This document shows positions 25,192 to 32,129 of a stretch of 64,000 nucleotides of DNA, piece by piece. The stretch comes from Thermoproteota archaeon (lineage in GTDB: Archaea; Korarchaeota; JAOZGF01; JAOZFZ01). The notes beneath the pieces were generated by a model. That model had not been told where the DNA came from. It searched no databases and saw only the letters and a program-made list of their open reading frames with translations. Location: contig JAOZFT010000035.1 in assembly GCA_027492035.1 (NCBI GenBank), forward strand, positions 85,923-149,922, written 5' to 3'. A program made the position numbers and the translations under genes. How positions within the stretch are numbered: position 1 is the stretch's first letter; the number at the start of each line of letters is the position of its first letter.

Positions 25192-25497
25192 TTATCCCTC
25201 TGAATCCTTTAAAGTTAACTCCTTTATTTTTATTTTCCCCCCTTCCTCGTAGGCAAAAATGGGTTTACCATCTATTTCCGCTGCTTTTTTAACTAAAGAA
25301 TTAATTTCGTTTCCTGATAAATAATTTCTTTTCTTGCAAGTCACTAACAATTTTTCATTTTTACTTAAAGCGACTAAGTCAGCCACTCCTTTACTGCCTG
25401 CACTTCTAACAACGAAATACCCCCTTTTTTCAAGAAAAGATTTAACTCTCCTTTCAAAATCTGCACCCTTCCTTTTAAGGTTCCTCCTACCATTCAT
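25192..25497 (-). CDS. Hjc-like Holliday-junction resolvase / PD-(D/E)XK nuclease
   Basis: KG.DFER...L...GYFVVRSAGS...DLVA...CK pattern. Confidence 0.75.
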   Translation of the reverse strand: MNGRRNLKRKGADFERRVKSFLEKRGYFVVRSAGSKGVADLVALSKNEKLLVTCKKRNYLSGNEINSLVKKAAEIDGKPIFAYEEGGKIKIKELTLKDSEG

Positions 25498-26773: not shown

Positions 26774-28150
26774 ATGGATTTTGATGAAGTTTTAAAGTTC
26801 TACTCAAACCCTTTGGTTCAAAAAGAAATTGTAGATTACAGTAATAAACGCTGGGTAGCTGTTGAATGCGAACCTAAGGAAGGAAGAAGAATATTTCTAA
26901 GGTATTGGGGACGCCAAGGCCCGCCTCTACATATTTCTAAAACTGAAGACTTAACAAGTTTAATTAATAGATTTAAAGGGTTGAGGCCAAGGACATTCTA
27001 TGCTTCAGTTAATCTCTACTCAAGGCTTAAATCGGTTGAGGACACTGAAAACTTGGACAACATCCTCTATTCTTCCCCCATATGGGACATTGATGGTTCA
27101 CCTGACTACTACAAAGAAACTTTAGAGATAGCAGAGTTGATTACTAATTTCCTAAAGGAAGAAGGAGTCCATAAATCAGTTTTCCTAAAATGGTCAGGTA
27201 GAGGGGTACATGTCCACATCCACGAAAAAGCCTTCTCGAAAGAAACAATTTCTTCGCATAATCCTTTAGATATAGCTTACTCCGTTGTTGAGTACGTTAA
27301 CAGAGTACTTTATGACGAACTAAAGGAGAAAATAACTAAATTTGAAGCTGAAAACCATCCAATAAATGTTGAAAACAAAATAGATCTAAAAAGGGTTTTT
27401 ACGTCTCCCCTATCCTTACATCGTGAAGTTGGCTTTTGCTGCGTCTGTTTTAAACCTGAAAAAATTCATAAATTTAAAATTGACTGGGCTAAACCGCAAA
27501 CTTTCAAGCATGACCAAAACTGGAGAACATACGAGGAAGGAGAAGCTGATGAATTAGCTGTTAAAGCTTTAAAGGAGATAGGGGGCTACAACTGGCCTGG
27601 TTCCAAGAGGAAAACCGGATTAACAGCCACTGTTTTCCCTACAAGGAAAAAAACAGAAACTGTTAAAACACATAAACTTGGCAGGTTTCAAGTAATGGCC
27701 CTGCTTCAGGCTGCAAGATACTACCTCCTAACTAAAGACTTAGAAAAAGCTAAATCCTTCGGCCTAAACAGGGCAATTTTTTACGCTTGGGCTAAAAGGA
27801 AGGGCATTGGTCGTGTCCCTTCAAGGAAAAAGAAAGAAATAGTGGAAAAAGGGGAAGTAACTAAAGAAGTGAGGGAAGGTAAAACCCTTGTCTACCTAGG
27901 AAATGAAGGTGCCTTTGTTTCCAAGGAAGGCTGGTTCACCATAGGAAACACGTTACAAACCCCTAATGATTACAGTAGAGAAATAGAACATAAAATAAGT
28001 TTAGTTATCCCCTACAGTACAGCTTGGGAAGCAGCTATCAATTATCTTAAAAAATTCCCGAAAGAAGTTTTACTCAGTCAATCAAAATTCTTCAGCAAAG
28101 CTTATAAACCAATAAGAGACAGTTTCCTTGAACTAGTTCAAACATCATGA
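26774..28150 (+). CDS. Archaeo-eukaryotic primase (AEP) superfamily protein with unassigned C-terminal domain
   Basis: Motif I WDID, motif II WSGRGVHVH, motif III region KID..RVFTSPLSLH. Confidence 0.72.
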   Translation: MDFDEVLKFYSNPLVQKEIVDYSNKRWVAVECEPKEGRRIFLRYWGRQGPPLHISKTEDLTSLINRFKGLRPRTFYASVNLYSRLKSVEDTENLDNILYSSPIWDIDGSPDYYKETLEIAELITNFLKEEGVHKSVFLKWSGRGVHVHIHEKAFSKETISSHNPLDIAYSVVEYVNRVLYDELKEKITKFEAENHPINVENKIDLKRVFTSPLSLHREVGFCCVCFKPEKIHKFKIDWAKPQTFKHDQNWRTYEEGEADELAVKALKEIGGYNWPGSKRKTGLTATVFPTRKKTETVKTHKLGRFQVMALLQAARYYLLTKDLEKAKSFGLNRAIFYAWAKRKGIGRVPSRKKKEIVEKGEVTKEVREGKTLVYLGNEGAFVSKEGWFTIGNTLQTPNDYSREIEHKISLVIPYSTAWEAAINYLKKFPKEVLLSQSKFFSKAYKPIRDSFLELVQTS

Positions 28151-28338: not shown

Positions 28339-30090
28339 TTGAAGAGCCAAAAAAAACTTTTAAATCATTTACATTTCTTTAAAATATCACGGAACTACTT
28401 AAAAAGATTTGAAGTAAGTCTACTGATCCTAGCGGCTTTAACAGGTATTGGAGGAGGATTTGGAGCAGTTATTTTCCGTTTACTCATTACAGGCTTTACA
28501 ACCCTTTCATTTCAACATGGCAGTAAAATACTGAACTTTCTAGGAAATTATTACATCATCTTTATTCCTGCAATAGGTGGTATGGTTGTAGGATTCCTTG
28601 TAAATCGTTTCGCAAGAGAAACTAAAGGACATGGGGTACCAGAAGTAATGGAATCCATCATGTTGAAAGGTGGAAAAATAAGGCCAAGGGTTGCAATAAT
28701 AAAGTCCCTTGCCTCCTCTATTTGTATAGGTTCTGGTGGTTCCGTAGGCAGGGAAGGGCCAATTGTACAAATAGGTTCAGCGATAGGTTCAACGCTGGGT
28801 CAAATATTTAAGTTAGGTGAGGAGCAAGTGAGGAACCTAGTTGCCTGTGGGGCTGCTGCTGGAATTGCAGCAACTTTTAATGCACCAATTGGGGGTGTGC
28901 TTTTCGCCTCAGAGGTAATACTTGGTGAATTTGCTACTACAACCTTTATAACTATCGTGATTTCCTCAGTAAGTGCAACCATTATTTCAAGGATATTTCT
29001 AGGAAACAAAGTTTCTTTCCTTATTCCAGCTTATTCTTTTGTAAACCCTATTGAAATACTTTTTTATGTGATATTAGGTGTTTTAGCAGCTTTTATAGGT
29101 CTGTTATTCACTAAATTACTATATAAAGTTGAAGATGGTTTTAATTTGTTGAAAATATCGGACTACCTGAAACCAGTCATTGGTGGGTTAACAATCGGTA
29201 TCATAGGTTTCTTCTTTCCACAAATTTTCGGTGTAGGTTATGAAACAATAGAACTTGCCCTTGCAGAAAAACTTGCTTTAGGCACAGTAATCTCACTCAT
29301 GTTTCTCAAATTATTAGCTACTTCAATCACTCTTGGATCAGGTGGTTCAGGCGGAATATTTGCACCCTCTTTGGTTATAGGTTCAATGCTTGGCAACTTC
29401 TTCGGCACCTTCATCCACTCTGCATTTCCGGAAATAACTGCGTCTCCAGGGGCGTATGCACTGGTTAGTATGGCTGCTCTTTTTTCAGCAGCTGCTCATG
29501 CCCCCATAACAGCTATAATAATTCTGTTTGAAATGACAGGGGATTACAAAATTATTTTGCCTTTGATGGCAACCTGTGTAATTGCAACCCTAATAACTAG
29601 AAGAATGTCAGAAGGAAACATTTACACTTTGAAACTTATAAGGAGAGGAATCCATATATTAGATGGAATGAGTCTTAAAGTGAGGAAAACTTTAACAGCT
29701 TTCAAAATAAAAGATATAATGACAAAAGATGTGGTCTCAGTAACACCCAACTTATCTCTTGAAAGAATTTACAGCTTAATCTTGAAAACCGACCACCATG
29801 GTTTCCCAGTTATTGAAAATGGTAAATTAGTTGGCCTAATTACAGTTCATGACCTTGTAAAGGTTCCTAAGGAGAAATGGGGAAAAATGAAAGTAAAGGA
29901 CGCTATGGTTAAACATGTTGAAACAATCTCAACTGAAAATTCACTTTATGACGCAATACGTTTAACGACGAAGAAAGGGGTTGGTAGATTAATTGTTGTT
30001 TCTAAGGATGACCCTAACAAAGTGGTAGGCATAATAACTAAAACAGACTTGGTGAAGGCTTATAATACAGCTCTTCTAGTTACATACTGA
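28339..30090 (+). CDS. CLC chloride channel/transporter with CBS pair
   Basis: GHGVP, GSVGREGP, FNAPIGG, GSGGIFAP; C-terminal CBS domains. Confidence 0.93.
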   Translation: MKSQKKLLNHLHFFKISRNYLKRFEVSLLILAALTGIGGGFGAVIFRLLITGFTTLSFQHGSKILNFLGNYYIIFIPAIGGMVVGFLVNRFARETKGHGVPEVMESIMLKGGKIRPRVAIIKSLASSICIGSGGSVGREGPIVQIGSAIGSTLGQIFKLGEEQVRNLVACGAAAGIAATFNAPIGGVLFASEVILGEFATTTFITIVISSVSATIISRIFLGNKVSFLIPAYSFVNPIEILFYVILGVLAAFIGLLFTKLLYKVEDGFNLLKISDYLKPVIGGLTIGIIGFFFPQIFGVGYETIELALAEKLALGTVISLMFLKLLATSITLGSGGSGGIFAPSLVIGSMLGNFFGTFIHSAFPEITASPGAYALVSMAALFSAAAHAPITAIIILFEMTGDYKIILPLMATCVIATLITRRMSEGNIYTLKLIRRGIHILDGMSLKVRKTLTAFKIKDIMTKDVVSVTPNLSLERIYSLILKTDHHGFPVIENGKLVGLITVHDLVKVPKEKWGKMKVKDAMVKHVETISTENSLYDAIRLTTKKGVGRLIVVSKDDPNKVVGIITKTDLVKAYNTALLVTY

Positions 30091-30350: not shown

Positions 30351-32129
30351 GTGAAGAAGGTTCTCTCAACAAATAAACTTTTGGTTTTAAGTATTTTAAC
30401 AGGTTTAGTGTCAGGATTGGGGGCACTTCTTTTCTTTTATATGCTTCATTTTTTTTCAAGCTACTTTATAGGTTACCTGGCAGGTTTTAAAGTTCCAAGT
30501 CCAGGTGGTGAAACTTCACCCTTTCACATCAATGGTGAAACAACCTATAAACCCTGGCTTCTTGTTATTTTACCAGCAATTGGTGGACTACTTTCTGGGG
30601 TAATAGTTTACTCCTTTGCACCTGAAGCTGAGGGACATGGAACCGACGCAGTTATTGAATCCTTCCATAAATTCTCTGGTTACATTAGGAGTAGAGTACC
30701 TGTAATTAAATTGATTGCTTCTGCGTTGACTATAGGTACAGGTGGAAGTGCAGGCAGGGAAGGACCTATTGCCCAAATAGGAGCTGGTTTTGCTTCATTT
30801 ATCTCAAACTTTTTGAAATTAACAGCTAGAGAAAGGGAAATCCTAGTTGTTTGTGGAGCTGCTTCCGGAATAGGTAGTATATTTAGAGCTCCCTTCGGCG
30901 GGTCCATTTTCGGCATAGAAGTGCTCTACAAAAGAGACTACGAGGTTGATGCCTTTATCTACTCAGTTATTTCTTGTTTTGCAGGTTATGGCGTGTTTGC
31001 TTCGGTTGTAGGTTGGAAACCTATTTTTATAACCCCCTTCTACACTTTCTCACCTAAAGAATTACCTCTTTTCGCTTTGTTGGGGATAATAAGTGGTGTA
31101 ATAGCAATTATTTATGTCTCAGTTTTTTACGGGCTTAGGGATAAATTCTTTAGAAAAATGAAGATCCCGAATCATTTTAAACCAGCTATAGGTGGTATAA
31201 TGCTTGGTTTACTCGGGTTCTTCTTCCCTCAAGCAATAGGGACAGGCTATGGATGGATGCAGCTTGCAATTAACGGTGAATTAGGGCTAAGTCTTATGCT
31301 AGGGCTTATTTTCGCTAAAATTTTCGCTACTTCCTTCACCATTAGTTCAGGTGGAAGCGGTGGGGTTTACGCTCCTTCTCTTACAATAGGCGCCATGGTT
31401 GGTGGCTCTATCGGAATGCTCCTTAAACAGGCATTTCCAGCCATTATAACTAACCCAGGAGTTTTTACATTAATAGGTATGGCTTCATTCTTTTCAGCAG
31501 CAGCTAAATGTCCAATTTCACCAATCATTATGGTTTCTGAAATGACTGGAGACTACAATGTTTTAGTTCCAGCTATTTTAGCTTCAACAATCTCTTACTT
31601 CTCTTCAGGTGAATACACCATATACGAAAAACAAGTAATTTCCAAGACACACTCCCCTGCCCACACAGACAGGATCATAAGTGAACTTGGGAGAAGAGCA
31701 TATAAAGTAACTGACAAAATAAAAAAGGCATTGATAGCTTTCAAAGTTAAAGATGTAATGACTAAGAAAGTATTTTCTGTGAACCCTGACTCCACAGTGG
31801 AAGAATTATATGACTTAATTTTAAAAACTGATCATCACGGTTTCCCTGTGATTAAAAACAATAAACTTATAGGTTTAGTTACTATTCATGAACTCAGATC
31901 ATTTCCAAAAGAGAAATGGAAAGAATTGAAAGTGGAAAATGTTATGGTTAAACATGTTAAAACTATTTCGGCTGAAGAACCAATTTACGATGCAATAGTG
32001 AAAATGGCAAGGGAAGGGGTTGGTAGATTAATTGTTGTTTCTAAGGATGACCCTAAAAAAGTGGTAGGCATAATAACCAAAACAGATTTAATGAAAGCAT
32101 ACAATACAGCTCTTCTTGTTTCCATTTAA
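30351..32129 (+). CDS. CLC chloride channel/transporter with CBS pair (second paralog)
   Basis: GHGTD, GSAGREGP, FRAPFGG, GSGGVYAP; CBS domains. Confidence 0.93.
   Translation: MKKVLSTNKLLVLSILTGLVSGLGALLFFYMLHFFSSYFIGYLAGFKVPSPGGETSPFHINGETTYKPWLLVILPAIGGLLSGVIVYSFAPEAEGHGTDAVIESFHKFSGYIRSRVPVIKLIASALTIGTGGSAGREGPIAQIGAGFASFISNFLKLTAREREILVVCGAASGIGSIFRAPFGGSIFGIEVLYKRDYEVDAFIYSVISCFAGYGVFASVVGWKPIFITPFYTFSPKELPLFALLGIISGVIAIIYVSVFYGLRDKFFRKMKIPNHFKPAIGGIMLGLLGFFFPQAIGTGYGWMQLAINGELGLSLMLGLIFAKIFATSFTISSGGSGGVYAPSLTIGAMVGGSIGMLLKQAFPAIITNPGVFTLIGMASFFSAAAKCPISPIIMVSEMTGDYNVLVPAILASTISYFSSGEYTIYEKQVISKTHSPAHTDRIISELGRRAYKVTDKIKKALIAFKVKDVMTKKVFSVNPDSTVEELYDLILKTDHHGFPVIKNNKLIGLVTIHELRSFPKEKWKELKVENVMVKHVKTISAEEPIYDAIVKMAREGVGRLIVVSKDDPKKVVGIITKTDLMKAYNTALLVSI

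Follow-up and report, generated by a model that had tools for sequence, protein, structure and literature searches.

A chromosomal primase-polymerase paralog of archaea with a putatively mobile C-terminal domain, a candidate enzyme of DNA repair

The stretch of DNA analysed here (the window; 64,000 nucleotides of contig JAOZFT010000035.1 of a Thermoproteota archaeon, assembly GCA_027492035.1) contains on its plus strand an open reading frame (ORF), 26774..28150, with an ATG start and a product of 458 amino acids followed by a stop codon. On the evidence of the ORF list, full-length homologs and an AlphaFold2 model, the whole ORF encodes an N-terminal catalytic domain (N-domain) that is of archaeo-eukaryotic primase (AEP), or primase-polymerase (Prim-Pol), type at residues 1-275 (26774..27598), a basic inter-domain linker at residues 276-300 (27599..27673), and a C-terminal domain (C-domain) at residues 301-458 (27674..28147), all on the plus strand. 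The N-domain contains AEP motif I, WDIDG (residues 104-108, 27083..27097), in which D105 and D107 form the metal-binding DxD, motif II, WSGRGVHVH (residues 140-148, 27191..27217), which has the SGxGxH form, and motif III, IDLKRVFTSPLSLH (residues 203-216, 27380..27421), with D204, R207 and H216. The C-domain is predicted to comprise a helical hairpin, a five-strand beta-meander and a helical bundle. Its signature, GRFQVMALLQAARYY...AKSFGLNRAIFYAWAK (residues 303-341, 27680..27796), forms the hairpin, and its motifs are LGRFQVMALLQAARYYLL (residues 302-319) and AKSFGLNRAIFYAWAK (residues 326-341). An earlier note, made from the letters of the window alone, had reported the ORF, the three AEP motifs and a basic linker, and all were found as described. 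In an alignment with 37 homologs of 47-58% identity, every motif quoted above is invariant or nearly invariant, and the linker, which varies in length and sequence among these homologs, is predicted to be disordered (predicted local distance difference test, pLDDT, < 50 at residues 276-278 and 285-299). Across the 135 fused proteins, i.e. those with both domains, that were classified as described below, D105 is kept in 128 and D107 in 129; in motif II, S141 is kept in 131, G142 in 132, G144 in 131 and H146 in 129; and in motif III, D204 is kept in 127 and R207 and H216 in 130 each. The window protein thus shows the DxD, the sGxGxH, the acidic residue of motif III and the catalytic fold that define the AEP superfamily, and the intact DxD, SGxGxH and motif III Asp suggest that the fused protein is catalytically competent.

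The window gene is a paralog that exists beside PriS/PriL and is not the replicative primase of its genome. The genome that contains the window (G000; 1.87 Mb, 42 contigs, 93% complete) encodes a canonical PriS on contig C9 (411 amino acids, 63.5 bits) with a cysteine knuckle, CNKC...CSSC (CxxC...CxxC), adjoined by PriL (336 amino acids, 105.8 bits, with C-terminal cysteines) and PCNA; the window gene is therefore not the only PriS ortholog, the case in which the earlier note would have had to be withdrawn. The window protein scored 19.9 bits against Pfam DNA_primase_S (PF01896; cut-off 26.8) and 18.1 bits against NCBIfam PriS (TIGR00335; cut-off 143.5), and the Pfam/NCBIfam scan of the protein gave no match other than these two sub-threshold ones. 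In hhalign, the family profile was aligned with the PriS of G000 over motif III only, with a probability of 3%. C225 is the sole invariant cysteine in the 37-homolog alignment and no CxxC zinc knuckle is present. The family therefore differs from PriS in falling below both cut-offs, in lacking the zinc knuckle and in not lying beside PriL. In all five Asgard and DPANN carrier genomes checked, a PF01896 match was likewise present away from the family gene, above the Pfam cut-off in three of them. A third AEP was found in G000 by profile search on contig C20 (locus L166:4081-5909), a paralog of 308 amino acids that consists of the N-domain only and shares 38% identity with the N-domain of the fused protein (E 5e-62). 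A weak PF01896 match in a 619-amino acid frame on contig C31 was a HerA-type helicase and not another AEP.

The family is large and widespread in archaea. A word-indexed search scored 7,999 candidates, of which 684 were homologs at E <= 1e-3, far more than chance could explain. The best 120 of these had 91-100% query coverage, lengths of 419-491 amino acids and no precomputed Pfam domain; those that bear a name in their source are all called 'hypothetical protein' except P0068, named 'DNA primase catalytic subunit'. An exhaustive search of 50%-identity representatives gave 265 matches at E <= 1e-3, and 382 stretches were confirmed in the GTDB species collection, with about 50% identity maintained across archaeal classes. 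The hosts of the best 80 of the 382 were Bathyarchaeia, Nitrososphaeria, Methanomethylicia, Nezhaarchaeales, Korarchaeia-type metagenome-assembled genomes, Thermofilaceae, Desulfurococcaceae, Odin-, Baldr- and Njordarchaeota, Woesearchaeota and Nanopusillaceae. Family genes lie among metabolic genes on contigs of up to 776 kb. In the phylum of G000 the family profile matches 40 of 43 genomes, including 24 of the 25 high-quality ones. Sixteen genomes of this phylum carry the fused gene, in 13 cases (one being G000) together with an N-domain-only gene; in another 18, chiefly from a single genus, the fused gene is missing and a C-domain-only gene is present, accompanied in 15 genomes (two of the matches being partial) by an N-domain-only gene that is always unlinked to it, the two being separated by 400 kb on the closed chromosome of G018 and by 65 kb in G036. 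With tblastn, the 72,556 plasmid and 50,697 phage records searched yielded no family copy; of the 26 IMG/VR pattern matches not one was confirmed, and PHROGs and PADLOC gave no match. The family gene is a vertically inherited, cellular, chromosomal gene, as the earlier note had assumed in calling it a chromosomal paralog. In G040, a genome of the same phylum, a family copy at C37:9756-11105 is broken into four pieces, and it is probably a pseudogene, since the largest piece carries in-frame stops (two TGA and one TAA); the same genome also holds an intact N-domain-only gene.

In the full-length AlphaFold2 model, built from an alignment of 40 sequences, the mean pLDDT was 89.6 and values in the N-domain were mostly > 95. 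When the model was compared with 48,161 chains by VIA-align, every strong match was confined to model residues 1-291, and Foldseek with the full-length model retrieved the same AEP superfamily at E of about 1e-6. The closest structural neighbours of the N-domain were repair AEPs of the LigD-Pol/Prim-PolC type, and the N-domain scaffold as modelled is nearest to these. The family shares with the LigD polymerase domain, Prim-PolC and the archaeal polymerase of nonhomologous end joining (PDB 2fao, 2iru, 6sa0 and 5dmu) this scaffold and not a sequence model. It further differs from LigD-type repair AEPs in the C-domain of about 160 residues, which they lack and the window protein has, and in the PCNA-type tails that many family members carry. 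Searches of PDB chains with the single sequence returned only consensus-TPR repeat artefacts, each stretch scoring <= 6.0 bits, and PDB searches with profiles A3 (the C-domain profile) and A2 returned nothing below E 0.3. The family is a branch of its own in the AEP superfamily.

The C-domain was also modelled alone, from 29 sequences that included stand-alone forms, with a pLDDT of 91.4 and a predicted template modelling score (pTM) of 0.88. This model and the full-length one agree in showing two long helices, a five-strand beta-meander and five helices. Among 40 diverse members, the invariant C-domain residues, many of them aromatic, include R304, F305, M308, L311, Q312, R315, A326, K327, S328, G330, N332, R333, A334, F336, Y337, K341 and R448. 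The C-terminal 163 residues (296-458) contain no cysteine, nor is there any in the conserved columns of the C-domain, in agreement with the earlier note, which had seen no PriL iron-sulfur (Fe-S) cysteines there. The C-domain gave no match at E <= 1e-3 in Foldseek against PDB (best E 0.6) or in BFVD, no usable match in the ESM Atlas, and no consistent Pfam match in 29 members, with neither a PriCT nor a PriL model among the hits; hhalign of profile A3 with the PriL of G000 gave a probability of 0.13%. Helix-bundle chains of PriL, PriX, PriCT, pRN1 and RepB' were absent from the C-domain matches in Foldseek against PDB, in the wide VIA search, in VIA applied to the top 447 of Foldseek and in BFVD, so that the match to a PriL, PriX or PriCT fold which would have told against the earlier note was not detected; as the tools themselves warn, a missing structural match does not prove a new fold. 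As modelled, the C-domain is a conserved module without a detectable known fold.

To examine its distribution among proteins, 290 fetched proteins were classified with hidden Markov models of the two halves, giving 135 fused, 29 N-domain-only, 33 C-domain-only and 8 with another N-domain followed by the C-domain, the other 85 being partial or of other types. Among the 150 representatives listed, the corresponding numbers were 17, 21, 27, 4 and 81, so that the stand-alone C-terminal domains which the earlier note had mentioned do exist. These stand-alone C-domains begin exactly at the GRFQVM motif. In P0186 only the C-domain is shared with the family, since hhalign aligned profile positions 291-451 at 100% and nothing ahead of them; its N-domain matches a phage 'DNA polymerase/primase' PHROG (E 3.7e-5) and, read by eye, contains DLD and SGNGLH motifs. 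In proteins of the P0183 type, the N-domain is homologous to that of the family and has lost DxD, SGxGxH and motif III altogether, as judged by profile alignment, while the C-domain and a C-terminal SLEEFFRR tail are retained. P0178, P0179, P0183, P0194 and P0204 are 366-441 amino acids long; their C-domain is fully conserved, and most have a tail resembling a PCNA-interacting peptide (PIP); in P0178, P0179, P0194 and P0204 the N-domain appeared degenerate like that of P0183, judged by eye only. From these domain arrangements we regard the C-domain as an independent mobile module. Adjacent genes for the two halves were sought and not found: an N-domain gene lay within 4 kb in only one of 80 stand-alone C-domain loci.

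N-domain-only proteins for the most part group together. In a tree of the N-domain, 32 of 34 N-domain-only sequences fell into one clade (support 0.89) that contained no fused ones. DxD and H146 are present in all 34 and S141 in 33, and the motif III Asp in 24; in the G000 copy this Asp is replaced by His and the motif III Arg by Ser. The N-domain-only gene lies beside a gene for a single-domain KaiC/RadA-like ATPase at all four annotated loci (G000, G018, G036 and G008). It is 60 nt downstream of the ATPase gene on the same strand in G000, and its flank opposite the ATPase carries an Lhr helicase gene in G008, at a distance of about 570 bp. N-domain-only proteins (L166, L168, L171, L173; P0133, P0137, P0143) end in a short peptide of their own, K-[LV]-D-[EK]-[MW]-I-x-x-[FW], as in PVDKWITEFLK, KLEEMLWF and PLDKWIIHFM, and this peptide may be a docking motif for a partner.

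The surroundings of the fused gene were compared at 81 places (80 related loci and the window), and those of the stand-alone C-domain gene at 80 metagenome loci, 59 of which had at least 650 nt upstream. A conserved operon was sought at the fused gene and not found, the commonest neighbour cluster, ABC ATPases, being present at 8 of the 81 places. At two Nezhaarchaeales loci a full-length ATP-dependent DNA ligase gene lies 124-140 nt downstream of the fused gene on the same strand. The stand-alone C-domain gene is linked to genes for ligase, PolX and glycosylase. A ligase-domain gene is located upstream on the same strand at 17 of the 59 loci, and at 13 of the 17 the two genes overlap or are separated by no more than 27 nt. 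Sixteen of the 17 upstream ligases are mini-ligases of 189-215 amino acids that contain only the adenylation domain (PF01068, E down to 5e-21) and no OB domain, and their invariant motifs are KxDGWR, LDxEL, FVFD, EGIVIK and WRKIK; the seventeenth, at L145, has 431 amino acids with the ligase domain at its C-terminus. A mini-ligase also matched the phage ATP-dependent DNA ligase PHROG (E 7.7e-16). Tight operons of mini-ligase and C-domain were recorded among loci L124-L165, for example at L128:3432-4498 and L134:2902-4492. A mini PolX gene is directly upstream of the C-domain gene at two loci: at L134 the order is mini-ligase, a PolX of 166 amino acids (palm plus thumb) and C-domain, and at L117:1407-2438 it is mini PolX and C-domain with no preceding mini-ligase and a full-length ligase gene about 2.2 kb downstream. 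A PolX-PHP gene of 572 codons adjoins the stand-alone C-domain gene at three loci, a methylpurine DNA glycosylase gene is near it at six, and in G018 an RNase HII gene starts 30 nt downstream of it. A complex prediction for mini-ligase A5 and stand-alone C-domain A6 scored 0.02 against a mark of 0.32, which speaks neither for nor against binding. The ligase without OB or DNA-binding domain and the PolX without 8-kDa and fingers domains are thus both stripped of DNA-binding parts. As the C-domain is paired with such stripped enzymes and survives on dead AEPs, it is suggested to supply substrate recognition or scaffolding rather than chemistry.

G000 contains three full-length ATP-dependent DNA ligases (frames of 568-599 amino acids) and a fourth partial match on contigs C9 and C19 (L174-L177), and a stand-alone LigD-type 3'-phosphoesterase (146 amino acids, 137 bits) on contig C26 (L181:4017-4457), all unlinked to the window gene. 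A Macro-domain gene lies two genes from this phosphoesterase gene. Ku and PolX were not found in G000, which is 93% complete. The LigD-type phosphoesterase is present in 19 of the 43 genomes of the phylum, and in five of them, from two genera, its gene lies 3-8 kb from the N-domain-only gene.

Many family members carry a C-terminal extension. The end-of-domain motif is present in 161 fetched members, 81 of which extend beyond it by at least 20 residues; h-x-x-[FWY][FWYLI] lies within the final 14 residues of 38 of these long tails, compared with 3.2 +/- 1.7 (maximum 8) in 200 shuffles. Other long tails end in TLDELF, QKTLF or ARLEL, and a similar ending is seen in the RNase HII and FEN1 proteins of these genomes (GQKKLEEFIN, TGLEKWF and GNDLTEFLD).

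Within about 5 kb, the neighbours of the window gene encode an isopentenyl phosphate kinase, a MobA-like nucleoside triphosphate transferase, an Hjc-like protein of 101 amino acids and two CLC channels; as the earlier note had stated, priL, plasmid or viral genes are absent from this interval, and GC content near the gene is unremarkable. The tandem paralogous CLC chloride-channel genes (28339-30090 and 30351-32129, plus strand), with C-terminal CBS pairs, are directly downstream. The Hjc-like PD-(D/E)xK protein (25192-25497, minus strand) matched Pfam Hjc above the Pfam cut-off (E 2.3e-13, 50.3 bits) and fell below the NCBIfam Hjc equivalog cut-off (30.8 against 70), being shorter than the 134-position model. 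The Hjc-like nuclease that the earlier note had pointed out near the gene is thus real, and its use as a hint to function was dropped because the Hjc-like gene is a singleton among the related loci.

On balance, we think that the family is probably a second archaeal Prim-Pol acting in DNA repair or damage tolerance beside PriS/PriL, because its scaffold is of the repair type, its C-domain is coupled to ligase, PolX, glycosylase and RNase HII genes, many members have PCNA-client-like tails, and a LigD-type phosphoesterase and multiple ligases coexist in a genome without Ku. The activities that we infer would be the filling of gaps, the processing or joining of ends, or repriming; these and all binding partners are proposals, whereas the separate, chromosomal and widely conserved family, its paralogy with PriS, the intact active site of the fused form and the modular C-domain without a detectable known fold are well established. 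The N-domain would supply the chemistry on its LigD-Pol/Prim-PolC-like scaffold, and the flexible basic linker would tether to it the C-domain, which may keep the substrate of the catalytic domain in place, either a 5' end where there is a gap or nick, or the template together with the initiating nucleotide. The C-domain might in this way be a functional counterpart of PriL-CTD, PriX or PriCT that is not homologous to them. In many orthologs the PCNA-client-like tail would recruit the enzyme to the clamp; the window protein has no such tail. Like eukaryotic PrimPol, which accompanies Pol alpha-primase as a damage-tolerance primase, the family would be a second AEP beside the replicative primase, presumably used in damage tolerance. 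The observation of the earlier note was thus confirmed, and its reading of the gene as a repair or repriming Prim-Pol paralog with an accessory domain is supported, with the activities at the strength given here.

Several results weigh against this proposal. Identity in structural alignments was higher with PriS (21%) than with LigD-type polymerases (12-18%), motif III is PriS-like, being the only stretch that hhalign aligned with the PriS of G000, and Pfam LigD_Prim-Pol (PF21686) was absent from the Pfam matches of the window protein at E <= 0.1 and had no match in the whole of G000 at E <= 10. A full-length ATP-dependent DNA ligase gene is near the fused gene at 6 of the 81 places, a weak link, and most of the repair context belongs to the stand-alone C-domain subtype, in which 42 of the 59 loci have no upstream ligase gene. 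The mini-ligases matched Pfam RNA_ligase (PF09414; E 1.6e-7 and 6e-7). The window protein itself ends in ...FLELVQTS without a PIP-like tail, as do its nearest relatives (P0001-P0032), and the window gene has no repair neighbour; its Hjc-like, isopentenyl phosphate kinase and MobA-like neighbours are singletons that are not conserved beside the AEP family. The tail form shared by the family, RNase HII and FEN1 is what we take to be the archaeal PIP box (Q/x-x-x-h-x-x-a-a). Finally, as an AEP domain with a tethered helper is the layout of true primases (pRN1 ORF904, NEQ395 and PolpTN2), priming is equally compatible with the architecture.

A wider form of the repair proposal, which we put forward tentatively and consider rather unlikely as it stands, is that the C-domain, as one module of new fold, is a substrate-recognition subunit shared by three unrelated classes of stripped nucleotidyl transferases without their usual DNA-binding parts (an AEP, a PolX of palm plus thumb and an adenylation-domain DNA ligase), and that together with the LigD-type phosphoesterase and PCNA these enzymes constitute a Ku-independent counterpart of bacterial LigD. 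This would amount to a modular system of end joining or gap repair that is widespread in Thermoproteota, Asgard and DPANN archaea.

The best surviving alternative, doubtful in our judgement, is that the protein is a self-contained monomeric primase, either repriming or an alternative replicative one, in which the C-domain acts as PriL-CTD, PriX or PriCT do and gap filling is secondary or absent. The family has the same arrangement as the single-chain primases (NEQ395 type, PolpTN2 and pRN1 ORF904), namely an AEP domain with an accessory domain tethered behind it, as fused primases are described in the available parts of PMC3914693 and PMC5862659. According to the same parts of these two sources, PriCT and PriL-CTD resemble the C-domain in occurring also as separate proteins and on other AEPs, and the presence of the C-domain on a second, unrelated Prim-Pol catalytic domain in P0186 recalls the domain interchange described for PriCT by Kazlauskas et al. 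(PMC5862659, in part). The invariant Arg and Lys residues of the C-domain (R304, R315, K327, R333, K341 and R448) are also in favour of a primase, and the PCNA-type tails of many members would place such an enzyme at forks. Against it, the tight operons join the C-domain with an OB-less ligase and a mini PolX, which need no primer initiation, the C-domain stays conserved where the attached N-domain no longer has DxD, SGxGxH and motif III, and G000 has a complete PriS/PriL. The C-domain also has no detected fold or sequence similarity to PriL-CTD, PriX or PriCT; PriL Fe-S_N, PriX and PriCT-1/2 share one related helical fold according to Kazlauskas et al. (PMC5862659, in the part available), and the helper domains of the NEQ395 type, PolpTN2 and pRN1 ORF904 are all-helical, whereas the C-domain as modelled contains a five-strand beta-meander and has no cysteines. 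The family further differs from these three in being chromosomal and not carried on mobile elements. Identity with the NEQ395-type fused primase was rejected because the Nanopusillaceae carriers have another PriS-type gene elsewhere and the C-domain lacks Fe-S cysteines.

Less probable by a wide measure is a role on RNA or RNA-DNA hybrids, such as RNA repair or the making and removing of ribonucleotide patches, with the C-domain as an RNA-binding module shared with an RNA ligase. Since the mini-ligase encoded in the operon matches the RNA-ligase model, an RNA substrate is compatible with it, and RNase HII is encoded directly downstream of the C-domain gene in G018. LigD-type AEPs favour ribonucleotides, which also counts for this role. 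Yet the mini-ligases fit the DNA-ligase adenylation model and the DNA ligase PHROG far better, the other recurrent neighbours (PolX, methylpurine DNA glycosylase and full-length DNA ligase) are DNA enzymes, and the PCNA-client-like tails point to DNA. Least of all do we credit, and strongly disfavour, a replicase left behind by an integrated plasmid or virus, domesticated or in decay and without a cellular role: non-PriS AEPs of archaea are mostly plasmid-borne in the available part of PMC4538821, and the N-domain of P0186 matches a phage PHROG, but the family is present in nearly all genomes of the phylum and on long contigs among metabolic genes, has no recurrent integrase, helicase or capsid neighbour and no plasmid, phage or IMG/VR copy, and keeps its catalytic residues and sequence identity across classes at ordinary GC content.

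Full-text literature searches gave no description of the family, a mention at the arCOG level being still possible, and none is contained in the available parts of PMC3914693, PMC2614490, PMC6393860, PMC9258230, PMC4538821, PMC5862659 and PMC12770985. Among extra archaeal AEPs, the 2015 review names plasmid-borne ones alone. The family is apparently an undescribed AEP family, a separate branch of the superfamily, and its accessory module is apparently new as well. The genes in question have been annotated merely as 'hypothetical protein', and they make up, in TACK, Asgard and DPANN lineages, a second AEP that is chromosomal and strongly conserved. Accounts of DNA replication in archaea usually include one AEP only, PriS/PriL, and additional ones are treated as plasmid or virus genes. 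To our knowledge, most archaea lack Ku and LigD for filling gaps and joining breaks. The family joins a scaffold of repair type to a confidently predicted domain that has no match among solved structures and appears to move between polymerases and ligases. If the protein is a primase, a helper domain of AEP primases would have arisen at least twice. If the repair proposal is true, the family would provide a polymerase that can be put to the test as the gap-filling or end-joining enzyme of archaea, together with a new accessory fold, and its thermostable minimal enzymes, such as the OB-less ligase with its helper, may be of practical use.

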